Of a stretch of 50,790 bases of DNA, positions 153 to 47,584 are shown piece by piece. Source of the stretch: a virus (Duplodnaviria; Caudoviricetes); the IMG/VR virus record IMGVR_UViG_3300017912_000567, positions 1 to 50,790 of that record. One strand, 5' to 3'. The notes below the pieces were generated by a model that made no database searches, was not told the origin of the DNA, and saw nothing but the letters and a program-made list of their open reading frames with translations. Numbering within the stretch: position 1 is the first letter of the stretch; each line of letters begins with the position of its first letter. Position numbers and translations under genes: made by a program.

Positions 153-842
153 ATGATATTAATACCAAACCCAACAAATGGAGAGATCATTGATATGACA
201 GATACAATGTATCCAACAAAAATGATTTCTGTATCTGATGATTATGTGATTGAACCAACTATAGGCAACATGTACGGATTTTGCACAAAAGGTACTTTTG
301 CAATCCACTCAGAAGATGTGTGGACAATTAATGAAGATGATTTTTTCAGTCTTAAAACGCTAATGAAAAATGATACACGTATTGAAATGATAGAAGATGG
401 ACAGTTATTTGTAATAATTAGATATGGTTTCAGAGGCATTGATATGATTGGAAAATCTGAAAAAAATGGTAGATTATCTTACATTGATGGTTGTACAGAT
501 TCGCTACTTGTAATGCCACCTCGTTTAGGCGATCCATGTTTAAATTATTTGCACTTTCCAATGGGCATAGATCAAACTCAACACTTACATCCAAGTATAA
601 GAATGGGTATTGTGATTGGTGGTAAAGGCGAAGCATTCCAAAAGCCTGAAGGAAAAAGAGAGGGTTGGGAAGAAGATTTAACTAAAGGTATGATGTTTTG
701 TTTAGAAGAAGGTGAAGTCCATAGTTTTAGAACTGCTGAATCATATATGGACATCATTGCATATCATCCTGACTCTGACTTCGGGCCAAGCGACACTAAT
801 CACCCAATGCTTAACAGAACCTATATAAATCATGGAAAATAG
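153..842 (+). CDS. Cupin-fold (double-stranded beta-helix) metal-binding protein
   Basis: C-terminal QTQHLHPSIRMGIVIGGKG...GEVHSFRT gives the HxH...H cupin pattern. Translationally coupled to the ParB gene. Confidence 0.7.
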   Translation: MILIPNPTNGEIIDMTDTMYPTKMISVSDDYVIEPTIGNMYGFCTKGTFAIHSEDVWTINEDDFFSLKTLMKNDTRIEMIEDGQLFVIIRYGFRGIDMIGKSEKNGRLSYIDGCTDSLLVMPPRLGDPCLNYLHFPMGIDQTQHLHPSIRMGIVIGGKGEAFQKPEGKREGWEEDLTKGMMFCLEEGEVHSFRTAESYMDIIAYHPDSDFGPSDTNHPMLNRTYINHGK

Positions 843-905
843 GGGGTCTTAGGGTATTAACCATGTTAAAAGAAGCTCGCAGAAGCGACCTCAGAGGGAC
901 AAAAA

Positions 906-2120
906 TTGTCAAAAGTATACAAAAAACGTGATATAGACAAAAATGTCTATGATCTTGCAGTAGAACGCATTAACAGAACTTACGATATTTTTGATAATGT
1001 CGTGGTTATGTTTAGTGGTGGTAAAGATTCCACAGTGTGCCTTAACCTCACATTGCAAGTTGCTAAAGAAAGAAACAAGCTACCTCTAGAAGTTTTTTTC
1101 TTTGACGAGGAAGCAATCCCATACGAAACAATAGATTATGTAAAACGTGTAGCTAACTTGCCTGAAGTCAACATGAACTGGTTATGTCTACCAGTAAAGC
1201 ATAGAAACGGTTGTAGCAGATCACAACCCTATTGGCATCCTTGGGCTCCTGAAGATAAAGATAAGTGGGTAAGACCTATGCCTGAACATGACTGTGTTAT
1301 TACTTATGATATGGTTGATAAATTCCCAACAGAGCCAAGTCAAAGACCATCCGTACCTGATTGTAATGGTTTGTTGTTTACACCTGATAAGTGGGGTGAG
1401 GTTGCTCTTATCATGGGAATAAGATCAGAAGAATCTTTGACTAGGTACAGAACAATTTTGCAAACTGGTGATGGTAAAAGATATGAAGATTATATGATTA
1501 ATCTTAAATCTAAAACTGCACTTGGTAATGTTTGGAAGGTCTGTCCGATATACGATATGAAAACAGTTGATGTTTGGACAGCACCTAAAAAATATGGGTG
1601 GGATTACAACATAACCTATGACATCTTAGAAAAATTAGGTCTTACACATTTACAACAAAGATGTGCTCCACCATACGGTGAAGAACCAATGCGAGGTCTT
1701 TGGCAATACTCTATCGCTTTTCCTGATATATGGGACAAGATGCAAACAAGAGTTGCAGGTTCAGCAACAGCAGCACGTTATGCAAACACAGAACTTTACG
1801 GTTTCGGTGGACTTCCTGACAAACCTGCTGACATGGAGTGGATTGACTTTGTTAAGTACTATCTAAGCAAACACCCACAACCATATAGATCACAGATAGC
1901 AAAAAGAATACAAGATGACATAAAAGCACACTATGCTAAAACAAATGACCCAATACTTAAAACAAGTCATTATCAAACTGGCATAGGTTGGGAATACTTA
2001 TTAAGAATAGCTATGAGGGGGGATTATAAGGGTAGGAAAACACCAAGCTACAGCAATGATCCTAAAGTAGTACAGTCACAGAAACAAAGATATGAGGCAG
2101 AGCGACATGGTAAAAGGTAA
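906..2120 (+). CDS. PAPS-reductase/PP-loop family protein (IbrA/DUF3440-like)
   Basis: FSGGKDS PP-loop, FFDEEA, GIRSEESLTR, PIYDMKTVDVW, QRCAPPYGEE. TTG start with GAGGGA upstream. Confidence 0.88.
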   Translation: MSKVYKKRDIDKNVYDLAVERINRTYDIFDNVVVMFSGGKDSTVCLNLTLQVAKERNKLPLEVFFFDEEAIPYETIDYVKRVANLPEVNMNWLCLPVKHRNGCSRSQPYWHPWAPEDKDKWVRPMPEHDCVITYDMVDKFPTEPSQRPSVPDCNGLLFTPDKWGEVALIMGIRSEESLTRYRTILQTGDGKRYEDYMINLKSKTALGNVWKVCPIYDMKTVDVWTAPKKYGWDYNITYDILEKLGLTHLQQRCAPPYGEEPMRGLWQYSIAFPDIWDKMQTRVAGSATAARYANTELYGFGGLPDKPADMEWIDFVKYYLSKHPQPYRSQIAKRIQDDIKAHYAKTNDPILKTSHYQTGIGWEYLLRIAMRGDYKGRKTPSYSNDPKVVQSQKQRYEAERHGKR

Positions 2121-2640
2121 AGAACAACAACCAATTAATAGTTTTGAATGGGTTAAAAGAGATAGTCTAAAAGCAAATGACTACAATCCTAACAGGGTTG
2201 CACCAGTTGAATTAGAGCTTCTAAAAACAAGCATCAAGTTATGTGGTTGGACACAACCGATTGTAGCAAGACGGTCTATGGAAATTGTTGATGGCTTTCA
2301 TAGGTGGACAGTTGCAGGTAGTGACGATATTGCTCAACTCACAGATGGTTACGTACCAGTGGTGTTTCTAGATGATGAAGTAGATAAAGCACAACAAATG
2401 TGTGCCACTGTCATACACAACAGGGCAAGGGGTAATCATATGGTTTTATCTATGACTAACATAGTTAGACAAATGAGGGACGAGTTTAAATACTCTGATG
2501 AAAAGATACAGGAATTACTGGGCATGGAACAAGAAGAAATAGAACGTCTTTATGATTTTGCACCCATGACAGAAAAGGGCGGTGGTGAGGAGTTTAGTAA
2601 GGGTTGGGTTCCTGATACTGGTGATAGGGCATTTGATTAA
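2107..2640 (+). CDS. ParB-like nuclease-domain protein (IbrB-like)
   Basis: ANDYNPNRVA, GWTQPIV, EIVDGFHRW, ATVIHNRARG motifs. Directly follows the IbrA-like gene. Confidence 0.88.
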   Translation: MVKGKEQQPINSFEWVKRDSLKANDYNPNRVAPVELELLKTSIKLCGWTQPIVARRSMEIVDGFHRWTVAGSDDIAQLTDGYVPVVFLDDEVDKAQQMCATVIHNRARGNHMVLSMTNIVRQMRDEFKYSDEKIQELLGMEQEEIERLYDFAPMTEKGGGEEFSKGWVPDTGDRAFD

Positions 2641-2720: not shown

Positions 2721-3182
2721 TTACCCCCATTGTTTAGATTCATAGATAGAATAACTAGGTGTGGATTGCACAGTATCTATCAAACTTCTTACTGGTAAAG
2801 AAAAATCTTCATAGCCTTGTGCAATGGTCTGAACATAGGCATCACTTGGATATGAATAACCTTTACGGTTCATAACATAAACCATTACACGGTTATGCTC
2901 ACCAAAGTCACGTTTGAGATCACCACCAAACTTAACATCAAAGTATCTTTTGCTGTATAAGTGTGGGTAGCCCTCAAATACATCCAGTGCCTTTTCACAC
3001 TGCTTAGTTATCTTCCACAATGCACCATGCACAACATCACCTTTGCATGGTTCTATATCGGCTACACCCCTAAAGCATAGCCTGTAGTCTGAAAGTTCCA
3101 TAGGACACAGGGCTTGTGCATTAGGGCATCTGTATCTCATATTGTCCATATTAAGGTTGGCACCATAAGCATAATAAAACAT
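2721..3182 (-). CDS. Gamma-glutamylcyclotransferase (AIG2/GGCT-like)
   Basis: N-terminal YYAYGANL, VHGALWKI, LDVFEGYPHLY. Confidence 0.9.
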   Translation of the reverse strand: MFYYAYGANLNMDNMRYRCPNAQALCPMELSDYRLCFRGVADIEPCKGDVVHGALWKITKQCEKALDVFEGYPHLYSKRYFDVKFGGDLKRDFGEHNRVMVYVMNRKGYSYPSDAYVQTIAQGYEDFSLPVRSLIDTVQSTPSYSIYESKQWG

Positions 3183-3184
3183 AA

Positions 3185-3424
3185 TTACTCCTCTACTGGT
3201 ATTAGTAGTCCATAGAATACAAGTTGGTCAACGAAACTATCTGCATTGTAATAGTCAATGTCATAACCAAACTGAATCTTGATACGCTTACTACAACCAC
3301 ACATCCAGTCTTGTAAGTTGTTGTGTGGTGCAAAGCTAGACTCTGCAAGTTGTTCTACAATGTGGTACTTGTCTATCCCTGTAAACAAAGCACCACCCTT
3401 CATGGTATATCTTAGTTTGTGCAT
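3185..3424 (-). CDS. Hypothetical protein
   Basis: 79-aa ORF packed between the amidoligase and GGCT genes. Confidence 0.7.
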   Translation of the reverse strand: MHKLRYTMKGGALFTGIDKYHIVEQLAESSFAPHNNLQDWMCGCSKRIKIQFGYDIDYYNADSFVDQLVFYGLLIPVEE

Positions 3425-4329
3425 AATGCTTTTCTCCTTTTGTTGTAAAACCTTCTGATATCAGTTGTGATTAAGTCACAACCTTTTGATAGTCCGTTAA
3501 AGAACACTGATAGCTTGTCTTGGTAAGTGTCAATTTGATCGCCACTTTTAGCTTTGATTGATCTTTTGCTGTCAGCTAAGTGTGTCATTGCTAAACAAAC
3601 TCTTACCCAGTTATCAATCTTGTCACCACAGATAGTTCCACTGTGATGTCTGAATTCTACAGTGCCATGCTTCCAAAAACTGTGTAGGTTAAGTTTGACA
3701 TATCTACCACTATGACCACGTGGTTGTATTGCTGTTGAAACATCTTTTGCAGTTCTTGCCTTGTTGATCTTTGTAAACATACCTGCAAGATCACAAGTAT
3801 CAAATTGGCTTCTATATCTAATTTCATTTGCAAGATATTTAGCATTAGATTGACAATAAGAATTTTGGCTTGATCTTCTAGAACGTGGCATGAAAGTATC
3901 AATAGCAGTTTCAAACTTCATGTATCTCTTAGCAAGATTTTTGAATTGACTTACTTGCCAATCAGAAACACCAACGTGTACGTGCAATCCACAAGTACGG
4001 TTTACAGTACAACCAATCTCTTCTAACCAAGTAAGGATTTTTCTAAGTCTTAGCATATCCATTTCACCTTTAAGTACAGGTGTAACAAGTTCTAATCCAT
4101 GACCTCTACCACTAACTGAACCGTCAGTCTTGATTCTCCATATAGAAGAATCATCATTGCTGTAGCTAGATATACAAACTATAGGCATATCAAACTGTAA
4201 ATCAGCTAATGATTGTGAATTGTGGTTACGTGAATTACGATTGATCTCTTCAACCAATTCCCTTTGTGATAGTGGTGAGATAAATTCAACCTCAACACCG
4301 TAAGTTCTGTAGTTATCTAAATTGTTCAT
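3412..4329 (-). CDS. Putative amidoligase (COOH-NH2 ligase, amidoligase_2 family)
   Basis: TYGVEVE, WRIKTDGSV, LELVTPVL, TCGLHVHVG, RYVKLN, TVEFRHHSGT. GAGGAG RBS. Confidence 0.9.
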   Translation of the reverse strand: MNNLDNYRTYGVEVEFISPLSQRELVEEINRNSRNHNSQSLADLQFDMPIVCISSYSNDDSSIWRIKTDGSVSGRGHGLELVTPVLKGEMDMLRLRKILTWLEEIGCTVNRTCGLHVHVGVSDWQVSQFKNLAKRYMKFETAIDTFMPRSRRSSQNSYCQSNAKYLANEIRYRSQFDTCDLAGMFTKINKARTAKDVSTAIQPRGHSGRYVKLNLHSFWKHGTVEFRHHSGTICGDKIDNWVRVCLAMTHLADSKRSIKAKSGDQIDTYQDKLSVFFNGLSKGCDLITTDIRRFYNKRRKALCTN

Positions 4330-5436: not shown

Positions 5437-6000
5437 ATGGCTAAAAATAGAAAACTTACACCACAGATTGCAGAAGAAATCAGAAACAAATTTGTACAAG
5501 GTATTGATACTGGTACACAAGAACGTAAGTATTTCTCACTTGATGCATTGGCAATAGAATTCAAGGTTGCAAAAAGCACATTATATAAATGGGCTCAAAG
5601 AGAATCATGGAAAGCACAACAAGAACGGTTTAACAAAGAATTCTTAGAAAGGTTGGATAGGGAAAGGCAAGAGGTTCTTATAGAGGAATCCAAGACGTTT
5701 GATAGCACAGCACTCAAAATAGCAAAGATACTTATGAATGAGGTAGGTATCCTGTTAAATGAGAACAATCAGAAACGTAATAATGGTAATACTGAAACTT
5801 ACTCACCCCAGTTGATACAACAATTAGGTAATGCTGCACTCCAAGCACAGAAACTAGGAAAGTTAGCACTTGGCGAATCAACTGAAAACATGAAGCTAAA
5901 TGCAGAAATCACAGACACAGATGCCTTCAGAGAAGCTATGGAATTGCTTGACTCGGTTGCAGAGCAACGCAGAGAAAGCAACGATAACGCTGTACACTGA
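5437..6000 (+). CDS. terS: Terminase small subunit
   Basis: N-terminal HTH (SLDALAIEFKVAKSTLYKWAQRESW) and helical body, immediately before terL. Confidence 0.75.
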   Translation: MAKNRKLTPQIAEEIRNKFVQGIDTGTQERKYFSLDALAIEFKVAKSTLYKWAQRESWKAQQERFNKEFLERLDRERQEVLIEESKTFDSTALKIAKILMNEVGILLNENNQKRNNGNTETYSPQLIQQLGNAALQAQKLGKLALGESTENMKLNAEITDTDAFREAMELLDSVAEQRRESNDNAVH

Positions 6001-7207
6001 TTGGTTAAAGAAAGCTAGAACCAAACAACTACCCCCACAAGAAAACTTTTTTATATGGTTGATACTTGCAGGTCGTGGTTGGGGTAAGACACGCACAGGG
6101 GCACAGGACATTGCACTGTATGCACTAAGAAACCCAAACACAATATCAGCAGTTGTAGCACCCACGTTTGGTGATTTACGTAGAGTTTGTTTCAACGGAC
6201 CTTCAGGTCTGAATTCAATCATACCTAAAGAATGTCTAGATACTTCTTTTGGTACAGAAGGTTATTCAAGTTCACTTATGGAAATAAGATTGTGGAATGG
6301 CTCACGCATAGTTGGTTATGCTGCTGTTAATCCTGAAAGGTTAAGGGGACCACAGTTCCACAGAGCATGGTGTGATGAATTAGCAGCATGGATGTATCCT
6401 GATGCTTTTGACCAGTTAATGTTTGGTCTTAGATTAGGTGATAATCCACAGTGTCTTATCACTACTACACCAAAACCTATACCAATAATTAAGAACCTCA
6501 TAGACCGAGAAGACGTAGCTGTTACGAAAGGAAATACGTTTGAGAACGAAGCTAACCTAGCAGAATCAGCATTAGAGATGATGCGACAAAGATACGAAGG
6601 TACAAACTTAGGTAGACAAGAATTATATGCAGAGATATTAGATGAAGTAGAAGGTGCATTATGGACACCTAATCTTATAGAAGAAGCAAGATTGTCAGAG
6701 CATGAAGAAAGGGATTTATCACAGATCATTGTAGCTATAGACCCTGCAGTCACAGCAAATGAAGATTCAGATGAAACAGGAATTATGGTAGTAGGCAAAG
6801 ACACCAATAATGAGTATTATGTATTAGAAGATTTAAGTGGGCAGTATTCTGCCGATAAATGGGGTAGAATAGCTGTTAATGCTTTTTATGAATGGGAAGC
6901 AGACAGAATCGTAGCAGAAACAAATAATGGCGGTGATTTGGTGGAAAGACTATTAAGAGGTATAGACCCAAATATACCTTACAGGTCAGTCAGAGCTACA
7001 AGGGGTAAGCTAGTACGTGCAGAACCCATTGCAGCACTGTATGAGCAAAGGCGAGTTCATCATATGGGTGCATACCCTGAACTAGAAACACAAATGTGTA
7101 CTTATGTAGGTCAGGTAAAGCCAAGCCCTGATAGATTAGATGCTTTAGTTTGGGGTTTAACAGAACTAAGCAAATCACAGGGCAATGTAAATTGGAGAAT
7201 AAGCTAA
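5900..7207 (+). CDS. terL: Terminase large subunit (start uncertain: 5900/5921/5948)
   Basis: Walker A AGRGWGKT, LRGPQFHRAWCDE, TTTPKP, nuclease motifs IDPAVT, DETGI, SPDRLDA. Confidence 0.96.
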   Translation: MQKSQTQMPSEKLWNCLTRLQSNAEKATITLYTDWLKKARTKQLPPQENFFIWLILAGRGWGKTRTGAQDIALYALRNPNTISAVVAPTFGDLRRVCFNGPSGLNSIIPKECLDTSFGTEGYSSSLMEIRLWNGSRIVGYAAVNPERLRGPQFHRAWCDELAAWMYPDAFDQLMFGLRLGDNPQCLITTTPKPIPIIKNLIDREDVAVTKGNTFENEANLAESALEMMRQRYEGTNLGRQELYAEILDEVEGALWTPNLIEEARLSEHEERDLSQIIVAIDPAVTANEDSDETGIMVVGKDTNNEYYVLEDLSGQYSADKWGRIAVNAFYEWEADRIVAETNNGGDLVERLLRGIDPNIPYRSVRATRGKLVRAEPIAALYEQRRVHHMGAYPELETQMCTYVGQVKPSPDRLDALVWGLTELSKSQGNVNWRIS

Positions 7208-14472: not shown

Positions 14473-14823
14473 ATGACAGCAGGTTTCCACCATTTCGTTA
14501 TAGAACAAGGTGCTACATTTTCAAAAGTTCTTACGCTTAAAGATTCAAGCGATGCAGTAGTTGATTTAACAGGTTATGCAAGTGCCGAGATGGATTTGCG
14601 TAGAAATGCTGATGGCTCTGAAGTTTTAACCCTTACCACAAGCAACAGTAGAATATCTTTAGGTGATAGTGCAGGTACAGTAACACTCACAATATCAGCA
14701 ACAGATACAGCAAGTATGACTGTAGATGATGGTGTCTATGATTTAGAGATAGTCAGTGGTGGTGGTGTTGTAACAAGAATACTAGAAGGCACTTACAGTG
14801 TCCGACCAAACATAAGTAAATAA
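14473..14823 (+). CDS. Virion fibre-associated beta-sandwich protein (BppU N-terminal-like)
   Basis: IEQGATF, VDLTGY, GVYDLEI, RILEG. Coupled to the fibre gene. Confidence 0.6.
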   Translation: MTAGFHHFVIEQGATFSKVLTLKDSSDAVVDLTGYASAEMDLRRNADGSEVLTLTTSNSRISLGDSAGTVTLTISATDTASMTVDDGVYDLEIVSGGGVVTRILEGTYSVRPNISK

Positions 14824-17800
14824 TGGCAATATCTAAAGTAACAGTTAGCGACAACGATACCATCAATACCGTAGAGGTAGCAGATACAAATGCAATTACG
14901 GTTGTTACCGTAGGAACACAAGGTCCAGAGGGTCCAAACACGATATTAGGTGCAAGTGTTGCCAATGCTTACCCTGTAGGCTCTACAGACGATGGTGCAG
15001 GTCTTATCTATGACCATGCCAATACAAGGTGGTTAGCAACAACTAACAGTCTTGCTAATAGTCTAAACTTTAAAATACCCAACCTAACATTTAATTCAGG
15101 ACAAACAGTATCTTCTATACTTGATGAAGATAACATGGGTTCAGACAGTAATACTGCTCTTGCAACCCAACAATCCATTAAAGCATACGTAAATAGCCAA
15201 ATAGCAGGTGTTGATCTTGATTTTCAAGGCGATACTGGTGGTGCTTTATCTATTGTACTAGGTAGCGAAACATTAACCGTTGCAGGTGGTACTGGTATAG
15301 ATACTGTGGGTTCAGGTAACTCTTTAACAGTTGCGATTGACTCTACAGTAGCAACCTTAACTGGAACACAGACACTAACCAACAAAACATTAACAGCACC
15401 TATATTAAACACCGTTGACATCAATGGTGGTGATATTAGTAGTGCAACAACCATAAATAAGTCACCAACAATCACATTAGCAGGTGATCTAAGTGGTAAT
15501 GTTACTTTAACTAACTTAGGCGATGCCACATTGACTGCAACAGTGGTCAATAACGGTGTAGCACTAGGAACTGACACTACAGGCAACTATGTAGCCGAGA
15601 TCAGTGCAGGTGAAGGTATAGATGTAAGTGGCAGTGGCTCTGAAACAGCTACAGTAACGATATCTGCAGAAGATGCTACAGATAGCAATAAAGGTATTGC
15701 AAGTTTTGATGCAACAGACTTTAGCGTATCTAGTGGTGCTGTAACCATACAGACAGAAAGAATCCAAGACATAGTAGGTGCTATGGTTTCAAGTAATACC
15801 GAAAGTGGTATTGCTGTTACTTATGACGACACCAACGGAAAGCTAGACTTTGATGCAGAAGATTTTGTAATCAGTCTTGCAGGTGATCTTGGTGGTTCTG
15901 TAACCATAACCAATCTTGCTAGTGCAACATTAACAGCAACAATCCAAGCAAATAGTGTAGCCTTAGGCACAGATACAACAGGTAATTATCTAGCTACTCT
16001 TGCAGCTTCCAATAGTGGAATAGACGTAGCAAACAGTGGTTCTGAAAGTGCTGCTGTAACAGTCGGTCTAAATACTGAATACGTACAAGATTTAGTGGGT
16101 GGAATGGTAAGTTCCAACACAGAGTCAGGTATTGCAGTAACTTATGACGATACAAATGGCAAATTAGATTTTAATGTAAGTGACCCAGTTATTACGCTTA
16201 GTGGTGATGTAGCAGGTTCAGGTACGCTGACTAATCTCGGTGATCTGACTATTACAACCACCATTCAAGCTAATTCGGTGGCTCTTGGTACAGATACCAC
16301 TGGTAATTACATCGCTACAGCAACAGCAGGAGAGGGAATAGATATCTCAGGCAGTGGTAGTGAGTCTGCAGCTATTACCATAAGTGCCGAAGATGCCACC
16401 GACTCTAACAAAGGTATTGCATCTTTTGACAGTACTGACTTCACAGTATCAAGTGGTGCTGTCACAGTAAATGCTGAACGTGTGCAAGATATTGTTGGTG
16501 CAATGGTCACTAGCAATACAGAAAGTGGCATAACCGTAGAATACCAAGACAGCGATGGCACATTAGATTTTACCATTGGCACACTAAACCAAGACACCAC
16601 AGGGAACGCTGCAACTGCAACTGCTCTTGAAACAGCAAGAACAATCGGTGGTGTTTCTTTTGATGGTACAGCAAACATAGATTTAGCAGGTGTAAACACA
16701 ACAGGTAATCAAGATACCACTGGTAACTCTGCTACAACCACAGCTTTAGCCACTGCAAGAACAATACACGGTGTAAGTTTTGACGGAACTGCAAATATAG
16801 ATTTAACAGAAGTCGTACAAGATACTGTCGGTGGAATGTTCTCTAGTAATACTGAAACAGGTATTACAGCAACGTATCAAGATTCTGACGGAACAATAGA
16901 CTTAGTTGTTGGAACTCTTAACCAAGATACAACTGGTAATGCAGCCACAGCTACAGCTTTAGAAACTGCTCGTACAATAGCCCTGAGTGGCGATGTAACT
17001 GCATCAGGGGTTAGCTTTGATGGTACAGGCAACATTACCCTTAGTACCACAATCGGTGCAAACAGTGTAGCCTTAGGTACAGACACTACTGGAAACTATG
17101 TTGCTACTATTGCAGGTACAACTAACGAAATAGAGGTTAGTGGATCAGGTTCAGAAAGTGCAACAGTAACTATTGGCTTACCAAGTGATGTGACGATTGG
17201 AAATGATCTAACGGTTACAGGTGATCTTACAGTCAACGGAACTACTACAACTGTAGCCACAACGAATATGGTGGTTAGTGATAACCTCATAGAACTTAAC
17301 AATGGTGCTTCTTCCAATGCCAATGATTCAGGTATTGTTATTGAAAGAGGTAGCACAGGTGATAACGCAATCATCATGTGGGACGAAAGTGCTGATAAAT
17401 TTACAGTCGGTACAACCACAGCAACAGGTGCAAGTACAGGTAACTTAACCGTAACCACAGGCACACTGGTAGCAAATATAGAAGGCAATGTTACAGGAAA
17501 CGTCACAGGAAACGTAACTGGTGATCTCACAGGTAATGCTGATACTGCTACTGCATTAGAAACTGCTAGGACAATACATGGAGTATCTTTTGATGGCTCT
17601 GCAAATATAGACCTTAGTGAAGTTATCCAAGACACAGTGGGTGCTATGTTTAGTAGCAACACAGAAACAGGATTATCTGCAACATACCAAGATGGTGACG
17701 GTACTATTGATCTTGTTGTTGGTAGTGGTGATATCACTAATGCAATGTTGGCAGGTTCTATTGCCAATGCAAAACTTGCAAACTCTTCTGTAACCATATC

Positions 17801-20800
17801 TGATGGCAGCAATACGTCTGCTATCGCTTTAGGTGGGACACTTACAATACAAGGCACATCAAATGAAGTAGAGGTAGGAGAAAGTTCAGGTACAGTTACA
17901 GTAGGCTTACCAAGTGCTACACAAATCACAACATCATTAGGTGTTGGTGGTGGCTCTACCAACGGTGTACAGATATCACAAGGTGCTATTGCAATTAAAA
18001 ATGGTGGTACTAAGTCAAGAGTAGATTTTTATTGTGAATCAAGTAATGCACACTACACAAGATTAGAAGCGGCAGCACACGCATCATATTCAGGTAATCC
18101 AACAGTAACCTTGCCAACAAGCACAGGTACACTTGCTCTTACATCAGATGACATTACAGGTAATGCAGCCACAGCAACCAAGTTAGCTACAGCAAGAACT
18201 ATTGGTGGCACAAGTTTTGACGGAAGTGCAAATATTGCAGTTGCCCTTGCTACTGCAGCAACAACACTGGAAACAGCACGTACCATTCATGGTGTTAGCT
18301 TTGATGGTAGTGCAAACATTGATCTTACAGAGGTAGTACAAGATACAGTAGGTGCAATGTTCAGTAGTAATACTGAAACCAACATAACTGCTACTTATCA
18401 AGACGGAGATGGCACGATTGATCTAGTTGTAGATTCAAGCAGTGCTACCGAAACACTTACCAATAAAACTATCAATGGTTCTAACAACACCATAAGCAAT
18501 ATTGGTAACAGTTCATTATCTAATAGCAGTATTACAGTAACCGATGGTACAAACTCTACAGCGACAGCATTAGGTGGAACGATTACCTTTACAGCAGGTG
18601 AGGGTGTAGATATCACAGAATCAAGTGGCACAATCACGATTGCAGGTGAAGATGCTACAAGTTCAAACAAAGGTATAGCTTCGTTTACAAGCGATTTTTC
18701 AGTAAGTAGTGGTGCAGTATCTCTTGCTAATTCAGGTGTCACTGCAAACAGCTACGGAAGTGCTACAGCTATTCCTGTCATAACAGTTGATGCTAAAGGT
18801 AGATTGACAGCAGTAAGCACTGCAAGTATCTCTACTAGCTTTACTTTATCTGATGGCACAAACACACAAAGTATTTCAGGTGGTGATACTCTTACAGTAT
18901 CAGGTACAAGCAATGAAGTAGATGTTGCTGTAAGTGCGACAGATACATTAACAATAGGATTGCCCAATGATGTAACGATATCAAACAATCTTACTGTTAG
19001 CGGTAACTTAACTGTTACTGGTACAACCACACAGACTGGTTCAGTTGTAACAGATAACAACTTTACAGGTCTTACTAACGCTAATACAGGTAATGCCACA
19101 GACTTTGGTTTCTATGGTAAGTATGTAGAATCAAGCACAACCAAGTATGCAGGTCTTTTCTATGATGCTTCTACTGATAACACCTTTAGATTATTTGTAG
19201 ATACCCAAACAGCACCTAGCACAACAGTCAACACAGGTGCTACAGGATATTCAGCAGCAGATTTAATTATCGGTGGTCTTACAACTACAGGCATAACTAT
19301 TGGCTCAACAGCAGTCACATCAACTCGTGCAGAACTAAACATACTTGATGGTGTAACTTCTAGCACAGCAGAGTTAAACATACTAGACGGAGTTACCTCA
19401 ACTACTGCAGAGTTAAATATTCTTGATGGTGTAACAAGCACAACTGCAGAACTAAATATTTTAGATGGTGTTACATCTACAACTGCTGAACTCAACATAT
19501 TAGATGGTGTAACTGCAACAGCATCAGAGATCAACATTATTGATGGTGATACAAGTGCTACATCAACCACATTAGCTGATGCCGATAGAGTTGTTGTAAA
19601 TGACAATGGCACAATGAAGCAAGTTGCTTTAACTGACTTTGAAACATACTTTGAATCAGCATTAGACACACTTAGCAACGTAACCACAGTTGGTACATTA
19701 GGAACGTTAGCTGTTACTGGTGATGTAACCATAAACACCAACACTTTAAAGGTTGATACTTCTAATAACAGGGTGGGAATCAAAAACGCTTCCCCTGACG
19801 TTACCCTAGATATCGGTAGTGCAACAGATGCGATACACGTACCTGTAGGTACAACAGCACAAAGACCATCTAGCCCTGCAGCAGGTTACTTTAGATATAA
19901 CACCACAACAGGTGGATTTGAAGGTTATACCGATGCTTGGGGTGCAATAGCAGGTGGGGGTGGTGCATCTACCCTCAGTGTCAATACCTATACTGGAGAT
20001 GGTAGTACAACTGCATTTACCCTAAGTCAATCACCTGCATCAGAAGATAACCTAATTGTCTTTATAGAAGGGGTCTATCAAAACCCTAACGATTTTGTTC
20101 TTAATGGCACAACATTAACATTTGATGTTGCACCTGCTAATACACGTAAGATAGTTGCATATCATGTAAGTGCAGCAGTTTCAGGTAACAACCTCAACCA
20201 CGATCAATTCACTGCAGACGGTAGCACTGCAGCATTTACGCTTAGTATTTCACCTATCCATGAAAACAACACACAGGTATTCATAGACGGTGTATACCAA
20301 CAAAAAGATAGCTATGCAGTTTCAGGCACAACGCTAACGCTAGATGCCAACCCTGCTAATGGTGCGAAAGTAGAGGTCATGACCTTTACACAAACTGATG
20401 TAAATACTTTACCTGCATCATTTGTTTCAGGCTTAACAGAAGTAACTGCAGCAAGTACAGATCATATGATGATCTTTGATGCTACAGACAATGCACTTAA
20501 AAAGGCTTTAGTATCAGACGTTATAGAAACTGTTGGGTCTAATCCAACATTTACTACAGCAGCAATAACAAATACTTCTACTGGTGATTCCTTAACGATT
20601 ACAACCACAGAAGATTCAAGCACAGCAGCACCAGTCATCTCGCTAAAAAGAAATTCAGGCTCACCTGCTGATGCAGATTACTTAGGGCAACTTAAATTCA
20701 AAGGTGAGAATGATGCTGACCAAGAAGTAGTTTACGCAAAGATTACTGCAAAGATTGATGATGCTAGTGATGGTACAGAAGATGGCATCATTGAATTTGC

Positions 20801-22070
20801 TAACATCAAAGCAGGTAGCCAAACAATTACTGCAAGGCTTAAATCAGATAAGTTAGAACTACTTAACAGTACAGGCTTAGAAGTAGCAGGACTTACTTAT
20901 CCAACAAGCGATGGTACAAATGGACAAGCCCTTGTTACTGATGGTTCAGGCACTTTATCTTTTGCTGATGCCAGTGGTGGTGTAGATGGCATAAGTTCAA
21001 GTGCAGATGCGACAGCGATTACTATTACAAGTGCTGAAAATGTTGGTATAGGTAGTACAAGTCCATCAGTAGCATTGGAAGTTCATAAAGATGCATCAGG
21101 CTCTCCTGTATTTGAACTTAAAAATACTAATGCAGCAGGTTATAGCGGATTACATTTAAGAAACAACTCAGATGTTCTTGTAGGACATGTTGGATATGGT
21201 AATGCTTCTGTAAGTGGCGCACTTGCAGACGAAGTTTTTTTCGGAAGCATATCAAACACACCAGTTGTATTTACACAGAGTGACTCAGAACGCATGAGGA
21301 TTGCTACTGGTGGAAATATTGGGATTGGCACTTCAAATCCTGATAATAAATTAGTTGTATCTCAAGCAGGTGATGCATATTTTAAAGTAGAAAATACAAG
21401 TGCAAGTAAGTATTTTCAAATTATCACAGGTGGAAGTGGTGCAAGAGTAAGAGCCGATGATTCTTTAATTTTTGACACAGGTTCAAGTCCTTCTGAACGC
21501 ATGAGAATTAATGGTAGTGATGGAGTAGTACTTATAGGTAAAACAGGAACAAACCAAACCACTACAAGTGGACATGAACTCAGTCCTTCTGCCAATGGAA
21601 CAGTACATAGAATGGAGTTCAGTGTTTCTAATAATGAATTTGCTATATACAACAATCATAGTAGCCCTTCTGGAACTGCTAGTTTGTCTTTTAGATACAA
21701 TAATTCACAAAAAGGCTCTATTGGTCTTACATCAACAGGAGTTTCATTTAACGTAACTTCAGACTACAGACTGAAAGAAAATGTAGACTATTCATGGGAT
21801 GCCACAACAAGACTTAAACAACTTAAACCTTGCAGATTTAATTGGATATCTGATGATTCAAATACTTTAGAAGATGGTTTCTTAGCACATGAAGTTTCAA
21901 GTGTAGTACCAAACGCAGTAGAAGGCACAAAAGATGATGTGTATGACAGCGAACATGAATTAGCAGGAGAAGCTAAATATCAACAAGTTGATAATTCTAA
22001 ATTAATACCTTTACTTGTAAAAACCATACAAGAACTAGAAGCGAGAATAGAAACATTGGAGAACGCATAA
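14823..22070 (+). CDS. Giant repetitive fibre protein with C-terminal intramolecular chaperone (peptidase S74)
   Basis: 2415 aa, T/S/G/D-rich repeats, ERMRI repeats, C-terminal SDYRLKENV...GFLAHEV...LLVKTIQELEARIE. Confidence 0.9.
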   Translation: MAISKVTVSDNDTINTVEVADTNAITVVTVGTQGPEGPNTILGASVANAYPVGSTDDGAGLIYDHANTRWLATTNSLANSLNFKIPNLTFNSGQTVSSILDEDNMGSDSNTALATQQSIKAYVNSQIAGVDLDFQGDTGGALSIVLGSETLTVAGGTGIDTVGSGNSLTVAIDSTVATLTGTQTLTNKTLTAPILNTVDINGGDISSATTINKSPTITLAGDLSGNVTLTNLGDATLTATVVNNGVALGTDTTGNYVAEISAGEGIDVSGSGSETATVTISAEDATDSNKGIASFDATDFSVSSGAVTIQTERIQDIVGAMVSSNTESGIAVTYDDTNGKLDFDAEDFVISLAGDLGGSVTITNLASATLTATIQANSVALGTDTTGNYLATLAASNSGIDVANSGSESAAVTVGLNTEYVQDLVGGMVSSNTESGIAVTYDDTNGKLDFNVSDPVITLSGDVAGSGTLTNLGDLTITTTIQANSVALGTDTTGNYIATATAGEGIDISGSGSESAAITISAEDATDSNKGIASFDSTDFTVSSGAVTVNAERVQDIVGAMVTSNTESGITVEYQDSDGTLDFTIGTLNQDTTGNAATATALETARTIGGVSFDGTANIDLAGVNTTGNQDTTGNSATTTALATARTIHGVSFDGTANIDLTEVVQDTVGGMFSSNTETGITATYQDSDGTIDLVVGTLNQDTTGNAATATALETARTIALSGDVTASGVSFDGTGNITLSTTIGANSVALGTDTTGNYVATIAGTTNEIEVSGSGSESATVTIGLPSDVTIGNDLTVTGDLTVNGTTTTVATTNMVVSDNLIELNNGASSNANDSGIVIERGSTGDNAIIMWDESADKFTVGTTTATGASTGNLTVTTGTLVANIEGNVTGNVTGNVTGDLTGNADTATALETARTIHGVSFDGSANIDLSEVIQDTVGAMFSSNTETGLSATYQDGDGTIDLVVGSGDITNAMLAGSIANAKLANSSVTISDGSNTSAIALGGTLTIQGTSNEVEVGESSGTVTVGLPSATQITTSLGVGGGSTNGVQISQGAIAIKNGGTKSRVDFYCESSNAHYTRLEAAAHASYSGNPTVTLPTSTGTLALTSDDITGNAATATKLATARTIGGTSFDGSANIAVALATAATTLETARTIHGVSFDGSANIDLTEVVQDTVGAMFSSNTETNITATYQDGDGTIDLVVDSSSATETLTNKTINGSNNTISNIGNSSLSNSSITVTDGTNSTATALGGTITFTAGEGVDITESSGTITIAGEDATSSNKGIASFTSDFSVSSGAVSLANSGVTANSYGSATAIPVITVDAKGRLTAVSTASISTSFTLSDGTNTQSISGGDTLTVSGTSNEVDVAVSATDTLTIGLPNDVTISNNLTVSGNLTVTGTTTQTGSVVTDNNFTGLTNANTGNATDFGFYGKYVESSTTKYAGLFYDASTDNTFRLFVDTQTAPSTTVNTGATGYSAADLIIGGLTTTGITIGSTAVTSTRAELNILDGVTSSTAELNILDGVTSTTAELNILDGVTSTTAELNILDGVTSTTAELNILDGVTATASEINIIDGDTSATSTTLADADRVVVNDNGTMKQVALTDFETYFESALDTLSNVTTVGTLGTLAVTGDVTINTNTLKVDTSNNRVGIKNASPDVTLDIGSATDAIHVPVGTTAQRPSSPAAGYFRYNTTTGGFEGYTDAWGAIAGGGGASTLSVNTYTGDGSTTAFTLSQSPASEDNLIVFIEGVYQNPNDFVLNGTTLTFDVAPANTRKIVAYHVSAAVSGNNLNHDQFTADGSTAAFTLSISPIHENNTQVFIDGVYQQKDSYAVSGTTLTLDANPANGAKVEVMTFTQTDVNTLPASFVSGLTEVTAASTDHMMIFDATDNALKKALVSDVIETVGSNPTFTTAAITNTSTGDSLTITTTEDSSTAAPVISLKRNSGSPADADYLGQLKFKGENDADQEVVYAKITAKIDDASDGTEDGIIEFANIKAGSQTITARLKSDKLELLNSTGLEVAGLTYPTSDGTNGQALVTDGSGTLSFADASGGVDGISSSADATAITITSAENVGIGSTSPSVALEVHKDASGSPVFELKNTNAAGYSGLHLRNNSDVLVGHVGYGNASVSGALADEVFFGSISNTPVVFTQSDSERMRIATGGNIGIGTSNPDNKLVVSQAGDAYFKVENTSASKYFQIITGGSGARVRADDSLIFDTGSSPSERMRINGSDGVVLIGKTGTNQTTTSGHELSPSANGTVHRMEFSVSNNEFAIYNNHSSPSGTASLSFRYNNSQKGSIGLTSTGVSFNVTSDYRLKENVDYSWDATTRLKQLKPCRFNWISDDSNTLEDGFLAHEVSSVVPNAVEGTKDDVYDSEHELAGEAKYQQVDNSKLIPLLVKTIQELEARIETLENA
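19314..19547 (+). repeat. Six tandem 39-nt units encoding VTSTTAELNILDG
   Basis: Units begin at 19314, 19353, 19392, 19431, 19470, 19509, with synonymous divergence. Confidence 0.92.
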
Positions 22071-37655: not shown

Positions 37656-38123
37656 TTGGATTCGTTTACTAGATTACTTTTAGCAATAGTTACAGCATGG
37701 TCAGTTATGATAGCTGTAGGTCTGTATGTCAGTGCAGACGAGATGACACATAACTTTAAAAACCCAAGTTTTTCAGGTGTTGGTACTTCTGCACATTGGC
37801 TAACTATAGAAAACCAAGAAGCCAACAGAAAGAAAGCACTCAAAGACGAGATTAAGGCTTACCAAGAGGATTTAGAAAGGGAAGCAGAAAATACAACATT
37901 AGCTAGATTTATACGAAACTTAGAAAGTAGAATATATGCACAGCTATCAAGACAATTAGTTGACAACCTGTTTGGTGAAACACCTAGTGAATCAGGTACG
38001 CTAGAGCTAGAAGGCAATACAATAGAATATTCTGTTGATGGTGATTTCATAACTTTGACAATTACAGATGCAGACGGAAATGTTACAGAGATTACTTTGC
38101 CTATCGGTGATTTTTCTTTCTAG
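37656..38123 (+). CDS. csgF: Curli assembly component CsgF-like
   Basis: Signal peptide, then ADEMTHNFKNPSFSG (cf. CsgF F.NP.F.G), and FIRNLESRIYAQLSRQL. Confidence 0.85.
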   Translation: MDSFTRLLLAIVTAWSVMIAVGLYVSADEMTHNFKNPSFSGVGTSAHWLTIENQEANRKKALKDEIKAYQEDLEREAENTTLARFIRNLESRIYAQLSRQLVDNLFGETPSESGTLELEGNTIEYSVDGDFITLTITDADGNVTEITLPIGDFSF

Positions 38124-38904
38124 TTGCACAAACTGGTCAGTACTTAACAACTATCAATTACCTGTAAGCCTAGTAAAACAAGCAGAAGTTGGTGTACTAA
38201 TCAACAAAGAACTTGCTAATATTGGTAAGCCATTCATAAAACCAACTATTGCAGTCTATCCAAACAGCTTTACAGATCAAACAGGACAACGTAGAAGCAA
38301 CAGCACATATGCTTCATTCTCTACAGCTATAACACAAGCACCTAACGCATACCTTATACGTGCCTTAAAACACGCAGGGGAAGGACATTTTTTTGATGTC
38401 GTAGAACGTGTTGGGCTTGATAACTTAACAAAAGAACGACAACTGATAAGGTCTACACGCAAAGACTTTAAAGAAGATAAAGATTTACTACCTCTAACTT
38501 TTGCAGGTTTGTTGATGGAAGGGGGTGTGATAGGATATGAAAGCAACGTCAAATCAGGTGGTTTGGGTGCAAGGTATCTAGGGATAGGTACTACAAAAGA
38601 ATATAGACAGGATTCTGTTACTGTTTCTTTACGCACCGTGTCAGTTAGCACAGGCAAAGTCTTGACCGAAGTGCTTACCACAAAGACGATTCTTAGTGTT
38701 GCATTAAGTCAAGATGCTTTTAGGTTTATCTCTAGTGGCACAGAGTTAGTAGAGATAGAAAATGGCATGGTTGAAAATGAGTCTGTAAACATAGCCTTAC
38801 AAAGTGCAGTAGAAACTGCTGTATTGGAAACCATAAAACTAGGTGTGAAAAATAATTTATGGAGTATACCTGATGAAGAAATGCTTAATGCTATTCGTGG
38901 TTAG
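38080..38904 (+). CDS. csgG: Curli secretion channel CsgG-like lipoprotein
   Basis: Lipobox LSSC, AVY..FTDQTGQR, FSTAITQ, FDVVERVGLDNLTKERQLIR, EGGVIGYESN..SGGLGARYLGIG. Confidence 0.92.
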   Translation: MLQRLLCLSVIFLSSCTNWSVLNNYQLPVSLVKQAEVGVLINKELANIGKPFIKPTIAVYPNSFTDQTGQRRSNSTYASFSTAITQAPNAYLIRALKHAGEGHFFDVVERVGLDNLTKERQLIRSTRKDFKEDKDLLPLTFAGLLMEGGVIGYESNVKSGGLGARYLGIGTTKEYRQDSVTVSLRTVSVSTGKVLTEVLTTKTILSVALSQDAFRFISSGTELVEIENGMVENESVNIALQSAVETAVLETIKLGVKNNLWSIPDEEMLNAIRG

Positions 38905-39574
38905 TGGATTTTTATTTGCTGATAACGAAGTTTATGTAGATCAAGTCGGTGCAACATTAAACCTTGATATAGAACAACTTGGCTCTAACAACATAATTGG
39001 TGGTGCTGATGCTGTTGCAGGTGGTATGACTGCATTAGACTTAGATGGTACAACAATGACACTAGACGTTAACCAAATTGGTGATAGTAACAAGTTTCTT
39101 GGTGATATTACTGCTGATACTTTTACTGGTTTCTTTGAATTTGATGGCGATTCTAACGTCTTTGATATACAAGTTGACCCAACCAATACTTATGGTGCAG
39201 ATAGTGGTAACTTTAATGTTGATGTAACTGGGGGTAGTAATACCTTTGAATTAAATGTCGCAACTGTTGATCTTGCAGGTACGCTTGATCTTGATTGGAT
39301 AATACAAGGTGATTCAAATGATCTTACATTCAATATTGACTATGATGGTGCAACCAATTATGTTGATATAGATGGAGATTCAAACACAGTTAATTTTGAT
39401 GCAGATGGATATTCAGGTGGATATTTCTATTTGGATCAGACAGGTAATTCTAGAACATTTAACATAGATCAACAGAGTACCCTTGCTAGTGATTGGCTAC
39501 AAATTAATTCTAGTGGCAACAATGGCACTATTTGTGTCAAACAAAACGATGGGGGAACAAGTACCTCGTGCTGA
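38873..39574 (+). CDS. Secreted curlin-repeat-like (beta-solenoid) protein
   Basis: Signal peptide; repeated [Q/D]xGxSN units (QLGSNN, QIGDSN, FDGDSN, QGDSN, DGDSN, QTGNS); terminal Cys pair. Confidence 0.7.
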   Translation: MKKCLMLFVVSGFLFADNEVYVDQVGATLNLDIEQLGSNNIIGGADAVAGGMTALDLDGTTMTLDVNQIGDSNKFLGDITADTFTGFFEFDGDSNVFDIQVDPTNTYGADSGNFNVDVTGGSNTFELNVATVDLAGTLDLDWIIQGDSNDLTFNIDYDGATNYVDIDGDSNTVNFDADGYSGGYFYLDQTGNSRTFNIDQQSTLASDWLQINSSGNNGTICVKQNDGGTSTSC

Positions 39575-40598
39575 CGTAGGTAATGTATCTGAACTCAATG
39601 GTGTTGCTCGTATTGTACGAGATCAACCAGTAGAAGCATCGTTAGAAGCCAATATAAAGAGCTATGACACGTTAGAAACGTCTAATGGTCGTATGGGTAT
39701 CACTTTCTTAGATGATACGCAGATAAGGCTCACAGAGCATTCTCAGGTCTTGGTAGATGAGTTTGTTTTTGACCCAAACCCTGATAATTCCAAGATGGCA
39801 CTTAATTTTGCCAAAGGCACTGCACGTTTTGTTACAGGTAAACTAGGTCTAGTACCTAAGAAAAACATAAAGATACGCACCAACAGTGCGACAATCGGTA
39901 TCAGGGGTACTGATTTTACAATCACAGTAAATGAGATTGGTGAATCATTAATCATTCTTTTGCCTAACCTTGATGGCACAAGCAGTGGTGAAATAGAAGT
40001 AACAACAGCTATGGGTACAGTTTTACTTAACAAGCCTTACGAATCTACAGTTACCACAGTCTTTGAAGCACCCCCAAGCAATCCAGTCATATTAGATTTA
40101 ACACTAGATATCATAGACAATATGCTTATTGTCAATCCACCTGAACGTGTAAGAGAAACCATAGAAGAAACCACGTCATCATCAAGCAATGTCTTAGATG
40201 TAGATTTCTTAGAGTTTGATGAACTTGATGCAGACTACTTTGCCAAAGATGAATTAGAGTTTACAGAATTAGATATCAACTACCTTGATGTCAATTTCTT
40301 TGAGGATTTGCTAAAGGTAATAGACGAATTAGATAAGTTAGCAGAAGATGATCTTGAACAAGAACAACAAATAACAAGGATTGTTGGTACAAAAGTAGGG
40401 CAAGACCCAACGACACAGATCATTACCTTAGTACAAGGGGAAGTTATTAGCTTACGCAGAAAAGTTGAACAATCAGTACAAGTTGATTTAAACTCTAGTC
40501 AGGGATACACAGTTATATTTATACAAGACGGTGTATCAAATACAATTAAGATTAATGGTGGTGGCGACTCAGTAATAAAAATTACACAAGGCTCATGA
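39483..40598 (+). CDS. FecR-domain protein
   Basis: DTLETSNGRMGITFLDDTQIRLTEHSQVLVDEFVFDP, GTARFVTG, TNSATIGIRGTDF; acidic C-terminal region. Start uncertain. Confidence 0.85.
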   Translation: MLVIGYKLILVATMALFVSNKTMGEQVPRADVGNVSELNGVARIVRDQPVEASLEANIKSYDTLETSNGRMGITFLDDTQIRLTEHSQVLVDEFVFDPNPDNSKMALNFAKGTARFVTGKLGLVPKKNIKIRTNSATIGIRGTDFTITVNEIGESLIILLPNLDGTSSGEIEVTTAMGTVLLNKPYESTVTTVFEAPPSNPVILDLTLDIIDNMLIVNPPERVRETIEETTSSSSNVLDVDFLEFDELDADYFAKDELEFTELDINYLDVNFFEDLLKVIDELDKLAEDDLEQEQQITRIVGTKVGQDPTTQIITLVQGEVISLRRKVEQSVQVDLNSSQGYTVIFIQDGVSNTIKINGGGDSVIKITQGS

Positions 40599-45084: not shown

Positions 45085-45091
45085 AAAACCT

Positions 45092-45143
45092 CTCAAATAT
45101 CAATTTATTCTTCATTAGACCACAAAAGTTTATAATTGTAAAC
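45092..45143 (-). promoter_or_regulatory. Leftward promoter with a leader shared with 4338-4354
   Basis: TTTACA-17-TCTAAT with TG extension, then ATAAATTGATATTTGAG. Confidence 0.6.
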
Positions 45144-45482
45144 CTAGAAAGGTAGATCATTATCTACATCACCTTCAAAACTTTTTTGTTCAAATAATTT
45201 TTTTGCCCATTTCTGACCGTAATCTTTTGGTAAACCATAGCTTTGGAAAAAAGAAAATTCATTGCCAAACTTTGTATGTAATTGGGAATGATGATGAAAA
45301 CATAAAGGTATCACATTCTCGTCACCTGCACGTCTAGACATACCCCTAGTACCTTTGTATGGTTTTAGTAAATGGTGTGCTTGTACGTGCTTAGAATGAC
45401 TGTAAAACCCTGCTTTACATAAGATACATGGTAAGGAAGCAACCCATTCTAGGTGCTTCCTATTCACATATCTTTTAGCCAT
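45144..45482 (-). CDS. Zn-binding HNH-like nuclease (DUF968/Ref-like)
   Basis: WVASLPCILC...AHH...IPLCFHHH. Confidence 0.8.
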   Translation of the reverse strand: MAKRYVNRKHLEWVASLPCILCKAGFYSHSKHVQAHHLLKPYKGTRGMSRRAGDENVIPLCFHHHSQLHTKFGNEFSFFQSYGLPKDYGQKWAKKLFEQKSFEGDVDNDLPF

Positions 45483-46759: not shown

Positions 46760-46768
46760 TTTATTTCC

Positions 46769-47560: not shown

Positions 47561-47584
47561 ATCAATTCTCAATGTATTTGACTA

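Follow-up and report, generated by a model that had tools for sequence, protein, structure and literature searches.

In the marine-type phage of the viral record IMGVR_UViG_3300017912_000567 (Duplodnaviria; Caudoviricetes), whose positions 1 to 50,790 were analyzed as a whole and are called the window here, four genes encode a ParB-fold protein (ParB1), a protein predicted to be a bicupin, a PP-loop enzyme of the IbrA type and a second ParB-fold protein of the IbrB type (ParB2). These four genes are best explained as one functional module of a group of uncultivated tailed phages, because they overlap or abut and because their linkage recurs, including at 13 loci that lack the genes flanking the cassette in the window. 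The cupin is an accessory of a subset of IbrA/IbrB pairs, and its family is robustly tied to enzymes that activate their substrates with AMP. As to function, we tentatively favor, at a little under an even chance, a ParB-assisted modification of DNA that uses adenylation chemistry.

The ParB1-cupin-IbrA-ParB2 cassette

The first 141 nt of the window are identical to its last 141 nt, and IMG/VR rates the record as 100% complete and puts it in the class with direct terminal repeats. From this follows a genome of 50,649 bp that is circular or terminally redundant and, since the window is a whole phage genome with a 141-nt end overlap, ParB1, which runs across the junction, is a continuous gene (Table 1). 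The ATG of the cupin gene overlaps the ParB1 stop codon as ATGA (in the sequence aaATGAtat). The IbrA-type gene begins with TTG and has GAGGGA upstream, and its 3' end is overlapped by the start of ParB2. A first-pass annotation, made from the sequence alone, had placed four co-oriented genes from position 50215 across the junction, between a primase-helicase and the packaging genes, and all of them were found where it put them. The DNA of the cassette had no nucleotide match among GenBank phages. The same gene order recurs in 48 of the 160 loci that were fetched through the cupin, which argues that the arrangement is more than chance.

The 404-aa product of the third gene matched PF01507 (PAPS_reduct; 46.3 bits, cut-off 22.5), named for 3'-phosphoadenosine 5'-phosphosulfate (PAPS) reductase, and, in its helical C-terminal part, PF11922 (DUF3440; 41.6 bits, cut-off 25), as well as phrog_2302 (9.7e-81). 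A protein annotated as IbrA in Streptococcus phage CHPC1230, whose gene has IbrB next to it downstream, shares 33.7% identity with it across 82% of the query. Together with the adjoining, co-oriented ParB2 gene, these matches agree with the first-pass reading of a PAPS-reductase/ParB pair of the IbrA/IbrB kind; unlike such pairs, the cassette has a bicupin between ParB1 and IbrA. Such pairs, in which a COG3969-type protein with PAPS_reduct and DUF3440 has a partner of the ParB fold, are common in phages and prophages. Two ParB genes also stand beside a PAPS-reductase enzyme in Microcystis phage Mwe-JY13. The motifs SGGKDS, DEE, CLPxxHRNxCS and GxRxxES and two cysteines, C94 and C103, are invariant in IbrA-type proteins (alignment A2, 19 sequences). 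An AlphaFold2 model (predicted local distance difference test score, pLDDT, 84.6) had as its top Foldseek matches, over ~220-340 columns, reductases of adenosine 5'-phosphosulfate (APS) and PAPS, flavin adenine dinucleotide (FAD) synthase, flavin mononucleotide (FMN) adenylyltransferase (FMNAT), CysD, TtuA, NcsA, LarE and TilS. Profile searches against PDB, run for IbrA and for the Toprim protein and unk357 described below, gave weak, family-level matches only. Three long IbrA forms carry an unassigned C-terminal extension, in which no ParB or cupin domain was found. IbrA and IbrB were named for the activation of prophage (eib) gene expression, and the literature found does not state their biochemical function.

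Judged from sequence, ParB1 is a stand-alone protein of the ParB/sulfiredoxin (Srx) fold, of the kind that is fused to phage DNA methyltransferases. It matched PF02195 (33 bits, cut-off 26.3), phrog_620 (3.6e-42), the N-terminal part of phrog_498 'DNA methyltransferase' (4.2e-38) and profile positions 15-142 of 436 in the PADLOC model MTase_II (1.8e-22), and it has the conserved motifs NPR and aGHtRllAaKkLg. Thus, it resembles the N-terminal ParB part of phage ParB-methyltransferase fusions, whereas it has no methylase domain of its own. ParB2 matched phrog_2159 (3.1e-59) and came just below the PF02195 cut-off (24.4 versus 26.3 bits); it keeps the motifs AN.YNPN, GWTQPIV, IVDGFHRW and HNRARG.H. 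The two proteins are related to each other (hhalign probability 98.6%), and in both the Box II arginine (GxxR) is conserved, as GHTR in ParB1 and GFHR in ParB2 (39 and 45 sequences). Neither reached the cut-off of the partition-ParB model TIGR00180 (36.8 and 25.1 bits, respectively; cut-off 58.45), and Pfam, PHROGs and NCBIfam scans detected no DNA-binding helix-turn-helix (HTH) in any of the four cassette proteins.

The cupin matched Pfam Cupin_2 weakly (17.5 bits, below the 27.2 cut-off), and no family was found for it in PHROGs, NCBIfam or PADLOC. Its AlphaFold2 model (pLDDT 89.1, predicted template modeling score 0.86) predicts a bicupin with two double-stranded beta-helix barrels. VIA-align superposed the model on DR1152 over 203 residues (Z 19.3, root mean square deviation 3.5) and also matched plant ureidoglycine aminohydrolase (Z 18.5), YlbA (Z 18.1) and BacB (Z 17.6); Foldseek agreed on the bicupin fold (3rns, 9.8e-10). 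The best fold matches are small-molecule enzymes (ureidoglycine aminohydrolase, BacB, AerE and KduI), and no 2-oxoglutarate/Fe(II) dioxygenase (TET/JBP, AlkB) was among the Foldseek or VIA-align matches listed. The cupin shares the two-barrel fold with ureidoglycine aminohydrolase/YlbA/DR1152 and with the BacB/AerE bicupins (Z 19.3-17.6), whereas identity is 11-13% and the gene context is different. For (S)-ureidoglycine aminohydrolase, the Z of 18.5 goes with 13% identity and no NCBIfam match, and the nearest named ESM Atlas cluster, 'ureidoglycine aminohydrolase family' (score 0.88), is a lead only.

In an alignment of 28 diverse relatives (A1), H144, H146, E188 and H190 of the C-terminal barrel are invariant and form a predicted metal site, which bears out the HxH cupin of the first-pass annotation as an invariant H-x-H...E-x-H; R150 stands in for the usual glutamate after HxH. 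H134 and H205-P206 are likewise invariant and the motif Y110-I-D-G-C-x-D116 is conserved, as is a C-terminal tail (G211, D214, H217) where model confidence is low. The N-terminal barrel is poorly conserved. YIDGCxD, HxHPSxR, ExHSF and HPDSD are motifs peculiar to this bicupin family, to which at least 1,695 proteins belong at E<=0.001 among 1,719 candidates. None of these has a functional name, and some also match the AraC ligand-binding domain PF02311.

To assess linkage, we took the loci of the 80 best among 437 viral cupin matches and of the 80 best among 237 cellular ones, and scanned their open reading frames (ORFs) with the window proteins. IbrA was near the cupin in 57 of these 160 loci (55 viral, 2 cellular); ParB2 was present in 53 of the 57 and all four genes in 48. 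The window's primase-helicase and terminase genes were both absent from 13 of the 57 (L039, L045, L046, L051, L052, L054, L059, L062, L065, L075, L078, L084 and L113), including two cellular contigs of metagenome-assembled genomes, L084 and L113. A ParB1-like gene lies directly upstream of the cupin in eight of the 13 (L045, L046, L051, L054, L062, L065, L075 and L113), the match in L054 being at E 2e-5 only. Two loci have a variant layout, with two tandem IbrA paralogues followed by ParB2 (L039:10946-13886 and L084:10257-13457) and the cupin 2.5-3.2 kb upstream.

In a tree of 148 distinct cupins, built by a quick method with support from the Shimodaira-Hasegawa-like approximate likelihood ratio test only and with long branches flagged, the IbrA label needs at least five changes on well-supported branches. 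On the other side, tblastn found no cupin in GenBank phages, and all 222 GenBank phage records with an IbrA match are without one; examples show IbrA-IbrB alone or the arrangement ParB-ParB-PAPS reductase. The first-pass annotation had made its case depend on a conserved linkage of the cupin to the PAPS reductase. Such linkage exists, at 57 of the 160 cupin loci, and it is partial, being absent when approached from the GenBank IbrA records.

Partners and fusions of the bicupin family

At the 103 loci without IbrA, we clustered the neighbors of the cupin and annotated representatives. An asparagine-synthase-like (AsnB-like) PP-loop amidotransferase was found at 37 of them, these being cellular loci, mostly from Myxococcota, Methylococcales and Planctomycetota. 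It is usually accompanied by a ~330-aa protein with a Zn-ribbon and a Topo-VI-A-type Toprim domain, which occurred at 30 loci; PF21180 was matched by 6 of 16 members of this protein family, and the PDB profile 2zbk_A at E 8.3e-5. The cellular cupin/Toprim/AsnB-like cassette (within L082-L161; e.g., L126:6929-10389 and L107:2135-7932) was seen in Verrucomicrobiota too, and the AsnB-like/Toprim pair is doubled in L097 and L105. A ~357-aa protein without a Pfam match (unk357) is directly upstream of the cupin at 32 loci. It is a PP-loop protein with an SGGxDST motif, and hhalign related it to the AsnB-like set (94.7%) and to the PP-loop region of IbrA (91.5%). An AMP-binding enzyme, often with a methyltransferase, neighbors the cupin at 10 loci, and some loci that have none of these partners show a cytidylyltransferase or a Cys/Met pyridoxal phosphate (PLP) enzyme next to it.

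When labels were given by priority, the 160 loci were divided into 57 with IbrA, 38 with AsnB-like and/or Toprim proteins, 32 with unk357, 7 with an AMP-binding enzyme (with or without methyltransferase) and 26 with no partner found. A hidden Markov model re-scan moved three of these 26 to unk357 and one to AsnB plus Toprim, and three more proved to be truncated, the contig breaking off right behind ParB1-cupin.

A second viral context (L055-L081; e.g., L068:2590-9521) has an SbcD/SbcC-like pair, then unk357, then the cupin, with a 205-aa protein of no assigned function between the last two in some loci. Peptide deformylase, pyrimidine-dimer glycosylase-like and MazG-like proteins follow the cupin there, and no ParB was detected in this context.

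We also found 33 longer homologs of the cupin. In 22 of them (among P0123-P0153; ~1,050-1,800 aa) a PP-loop domain of the unk357 type and the bicupin are joined in one chain, and all but two of the 22 have one or more S-adenosylmethionine (SAM) methyltransferase domains according to precomputed Pfam lists; for two of these fusions the source is named, and both are diatoms (Chaetoceros tenuissimus and Seminavis robusta). In the others, the bicupin is fused to a nonribosomal peptide synthetase (NRPS) condensation domain and carrier protein (4/33), to a biopterin-dependent hydroxylase (Biopterin_H; 2/33) or to a trypsin-like protease (1/33). The last 4 of the 33 showed no PP-loop domain; three of these have methyltransferase domains and may be partial. 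No fusion of the bicupin with IbrA or with ParB was found among the 33. The diatom proteins were also considered as enzymes of dimethylsulfoniopropionate (DMSP) synthesis of the DsyGD type, and this was rejected, as DsyD is a PF04115 ureidoglycolate-lyase-like domain and not the cassette cupin (PMC11306096, available part of the text).

The IbrA, AsnB-like, unk357 and AMP-binding neighbors and the 22 fusions among the 33 long forms together make the assignment of the bicupin family as a partner of adenylating enzymes robust. They also fit the first-pass idea that the cupin handles or supplies what the PP-loop enzyme uses.

Candidate functions of the cassette

If the cassette modifies DNA, the IbrA-type enzyme would use ATP to form an AMP-activated (adenylated) intermediate, as its PP-loop and PAPS-reductase fold suggest. 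The bicupin would contribute a step that depends on a metal and acts on that substrate, on the group to be added or on the adduct; such a step is suggested by the adenylate-forming enzyme that this cupin family nearly always has as neighbor or fusion partner and by the invariant H-x-H...E-x-H site, and the fusions to NRPS condensation-carrier and methyltransferase domains point to an amino-acid-like or carboxylate group. The two ParB/Srx-fold proteins may bind nucleotide and bring the enzymes to phage DNA or switch them on there, a loader or switch role proposed by analogy with methylase-fused ParB domains and with the ParB-dependent activation of a phage thymine dioxygenase. The outcome would be a post-replicative covalent, non-methyl mark on phage DNA, probably not a phosphorothioate of the Dnd/Ssp/BrxP type. 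What the analysis shows directly are the genes with their domains and folds, the conserved linkage and the fusions; that IbrA adenylates, what the cupin does, that DNA is the target and that the mark would protect are inferred. A more detailed version, rather unlikely when all its parts are taken together, would have an undescribed mark that is neither methyl nor phosphorothioate: adenylation by IbrA would take place at a base carbonyl or at the backbone, after which an amino-acid-like group that the bicupin has made or trimmed would be attached, with the ParBs as DNA loaders. Bacteria, where the Toprim protein is added, and diatoms, where a single giant fusion enzyme would do the work, would be reusing this PP-loop/bicupin chemistry.

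Several observations favor DNA. Two ParB genes are kept with the pair, the cassette lies between replication and packaging genes, ParB1 is related to the ParB portion of proteins that join ParB to a DNA methylase, and a Toprim protein accompanies the cellular AsnB-like/cupin pair. In phages, fusions between ParB folds and DNA methylases are frequent (bioRxiv 10.1101/2025.10.10.680097, available part), and one phage ParB has been described that switches on a DNA thymine dioxygenase when the DNA is double-stranded (PMC13229309, available part). In that ParB-dependent system (5mYOX and its cognate ParB), as in the cassette, a short ParB-fold protein stands beside a metal enzyme; as far as that text describes it, 5mYOX is of the 2-oxoglutarate/Fe(II) TET/JBP type, whereas the cassette, known from its genes alone, has a PP-loop ATPase and a classical bicupin. 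The first-pass remark that no methyltransferase is present held in six-frame searches of the whole genome for six Pfam DNA-methylase families (the MT-A70 search was void, because its control gave no signal) and among the 30 window proteins scanned by Pfam or PHROGs, a subset of the ORFs.

Other observations weigh against this interpretation. The case for DNA as the target stands or falls with the two ParB-fold genes, and ParB/Srx folds include small-molecule and protein enzymes (bioRxiv 10.1101/2025.10.10.680097, available part); ParB1 itself has a weak SerK match (E 0.00099). The nearest solved relatives of IbrA act mostly on small molecules (APS, PAPS, FMN and sulfate). Several contexts of the cupin have the look of small-molecule metabolism, among them the fusions to NRPS domains, Biopterin_H and a protease and the AMP-binding/methyltransferase, cytidylyltransferase and PLP neighbors, and the PP-loop/methyltransferase/cupin fusions come from diatoms, in which one would not expect a DNA mark of the phage style. 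A nucleic-acid role of the Toprim protein is uncertain, because of weak membrane-protein-like matches. As for the linkage, the fetched loci are biased to close relatives by the choice of best matches, and at 44 of the 57 IbrA-cupin loci at least one of the two flanking genes of the window (primase-helicase, terminase) is present as well; the majority of the 44 represent a single phage lineage and are not independent. The lack of a cupin in all 222 GenBank IbrA records implies that IbrA/IbrB works without it.

These points for and against DNA are the reason for our graded preference, and they leave a small-molecule or nucleotide-level pathway as a serious rival, although on balance we regard it as somewhat unlikely. 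Here, IbrA would adenylate a metabolite or a free nucleotide, the bicupin would tailor it, and the ParBs would be NTP-dependent enzymes or regulators instead of loaders on DNA. Conceivable products are a modified nucleotide precursor, an auxiliary metabolite and an anti-defense molecule. Such a pathway would accommodate the cupin fusions to NRPS condensation and peptidyl carrier domains, Biopterin_H and methyltransferases, including those of diatoms, the AMP-binding/methyltransferase, cytidylyltransferase and PLP neighbors, and the small-molecule substrates both of the enzymes with the best cupin folds and of the solved IbrA relatives. ParB folds are further described as binding ATP, CTP or GTP and as including SerK and sulfiredoxin (bioRxiv 10.1101/2025.10.10.680097, available part). 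It explains less well why two ParB-fold genes, one of the kind fused to DNA methylases, stay with the pair in 48 loci, why the cassette is located between replication and packaging genes, and why a Toprim protein travels with the cellular cupin/AsnB-like pairs.

A role in transcription, with IbrA/IbrB as co-activators of gene expression and the cupin as a ligand-sensing domain, seems improbable to us. It would agree with the product note 'co-activator of prophage gene expression' given to IbrA and IbrB of Streptococcus phage CHPC1230, with the AraC ligand-binding matches of some cupin relatives, and with the ParB-like VirB, which is reportedly a CTP-dependent gene activator. The invariant, catalytic-type PP-loop and GxRxxES motif of IbrA and the invariant predicted metal site of the cupin argue that both are enzymes rather than regulators; in addition, no HTH was matched in the four proteins, and the cupin is fused to enzymes and not to HTH domains.

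The first-pass annotation had leaned toward sulfur chemistry of the phosphorothioation kind, and this slant did not survive well: we consider it quite improbable that IbrA inserts sulfur into the DNA backbone, as in Dnd/Ssp/BrxP systems, with the cupin handling a sulfur compound. The cassette shares with Dnd, Ssp and BREX type 4 (BrxP) a PP-loop enzyme of the PAPS-reductase family, and Dnd also includes a protein with the ParB fold, DndB (PMC10853773, available part). IbrA also resembles DndC locally, over residues 161-225 (NCBIfam 31.9 bits; PADLOC DndC 1.5e-8). This is the GxRxxES region only, and the 31.9 bits compare with a cut-off of 290.4 for the DndC equivalog TIGR03183. Phosphorothioation is described as requiring a PAPS-reductase-domain protein, a P-loop ATPase (DndD, SspC or BrxC) and a cysteine desulfurase (PMC12914056, available part). 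Unlike a Dnd system, the cassette has no full-length DndC match, and six-frame searches of the phage genome found neither DndD (TIGR03185; SspC and BrxC models were not searched) nor a cysteine desulfurase (Aminotran_5, PF00266), although the latter may come from the host (PMC12914056 and PMC10853773, available parts), for example as IscS. DUF4007 of BrxP was not among the Pfam matches of the scanned window proteins.

The available part of PMC10853773 gives DndC three cluster-binding cysteines and a cysteine dyad. IbrA has two invariant cysteines, C94 and C103, and a third (253/254) that varies and is missing in some members, a comparison made without residue-level alignment to DndC. Because two are invariant, some thiol or metal-cluster chemistry may occur. 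The other partners of the cupin (AsnB-like, AMP-binding and NRPS condensation domains) suggest activation of carboxylates rather than sulfur transfer. A cupin is not part of the Dnd/Ssp/BrxP gene sets as described in the available portions of PMC12839542, PMC12914056 and PMC10853773, and the word 'cupin' does not appear in that of PMC12839542.

Finally, the cupin gene might have been inserted into an otherwise ordinary IbrA/IbrB locus with which it has no functional link. This would suit the absence of the cupin from all 222 GenBank records and the window flanking genes shared by 44 of the 57 linked loci, and is very improbable in view of the overlap of the cupin start with the ParB1 stop, the 13 linked loci without either flanking gene and the ties of the cupin family to other PP-loop enzymes, to one of which it is fused in 22 of the 33 longer homologs.

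Pairs of the IbrA/IbrB kind were already known, as was the modification of phage DNA with the help of ParB. Within the literature searched, the conserved bicupin with a second ParB, the general PP-loop/bicupin partnership and the fused forms are new; no paper linking a cupin to IbrA/IbrB was found, and the supplementary tables of PMC12839542, PMC10853773 and PMC12914056 may list such neighborhoods. Since IbrA/IbrB-type pairs are widespread in phages (222 matching GenBank records), it is of interest that a subset of them is now joined by a conserved third enzyme and that the family of this enzyme accompanies adenylate-forming enzymes in general, in phages and as far afield as diatoms. Experiments can now start from a defined set of four proteins and from a naturally occurring fusion. 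If DNA is the target, the cassette would represent a new class of phage DNA modification, with a bearing on restriction evasion and on sequencing artefacts; if not, an unrecognized PP-loop/bicupin enzyme partnership is still defined.

Other genes of the phage genome

Table 1. Positions of the cassette genes and of other features in the window
Feature	Position	Strand	Remarks
Primase-helicase	48488-50188	+	DnaB_C and Toprim domains; upstream of cassette
ParB1	50215-50790 (192 codons), then 142-156 (last four codons and stop)	+	196 aa
Cupin (predicted bicupin)	153-842	+	229 aa
IbrA-type PP-loop enzyme	906-2120	+	404 aa; PAPS_reduct and DUF3440
ParB2 (IbrB-type)	2092-2640	+	182 aa
GGACT (gamma-glutamyl cyclotransferase-like)	2721-3182	-	Part of a three-gene module downstream of cassette
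79-aa ORF	within 2721-4329	-	Same module
Amidoligase_2	3412-4329	-	Same module as GGACT
Small-terminase candidate	5437-6000		Downstream of cassette
Large terminase	5900-7207		Downstream of cassette
Erf-like annealing protein	46100-46759	-	
SSB-like (single-stranded DNA-binding) protein	45482-45841	-	
HNH-like protein	45144-45482	-	

The three genes that follow the cassette (GGACT, the 79-aa ORF and Amidoligase_2) were considered as a part of it and set aside, as they are on the opposite strand, have another location in L026-L029 and are missing where cupin and IbrA occur together without the flanking genes. The module is kept in syntenic relatives and is probably a separate system of amide-bond chemistry.

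A minus-strand recombination and replication set is located within 44059-47572 and includes the Erf-like, SSB-like and HNH-like proteins of Table 1, along with a 345-aa ORF (44059-45096, minus strand) without a family match in the Pfam and PHROGs scans. Just upstream of the spanin and lysozyme genes are homologs of the curli secretion proteins CsgF (37656-38123; 2.3e-19) and CsgG (38068-38904; 1.8e-49) and a FecR-domain protein (39483-40598). A 2,415-aa ORF (14823-22070) contains three copies of a 181-nt repeat and six of a 47-nt repeat and is presumably a repetitive structural or fiber protein.

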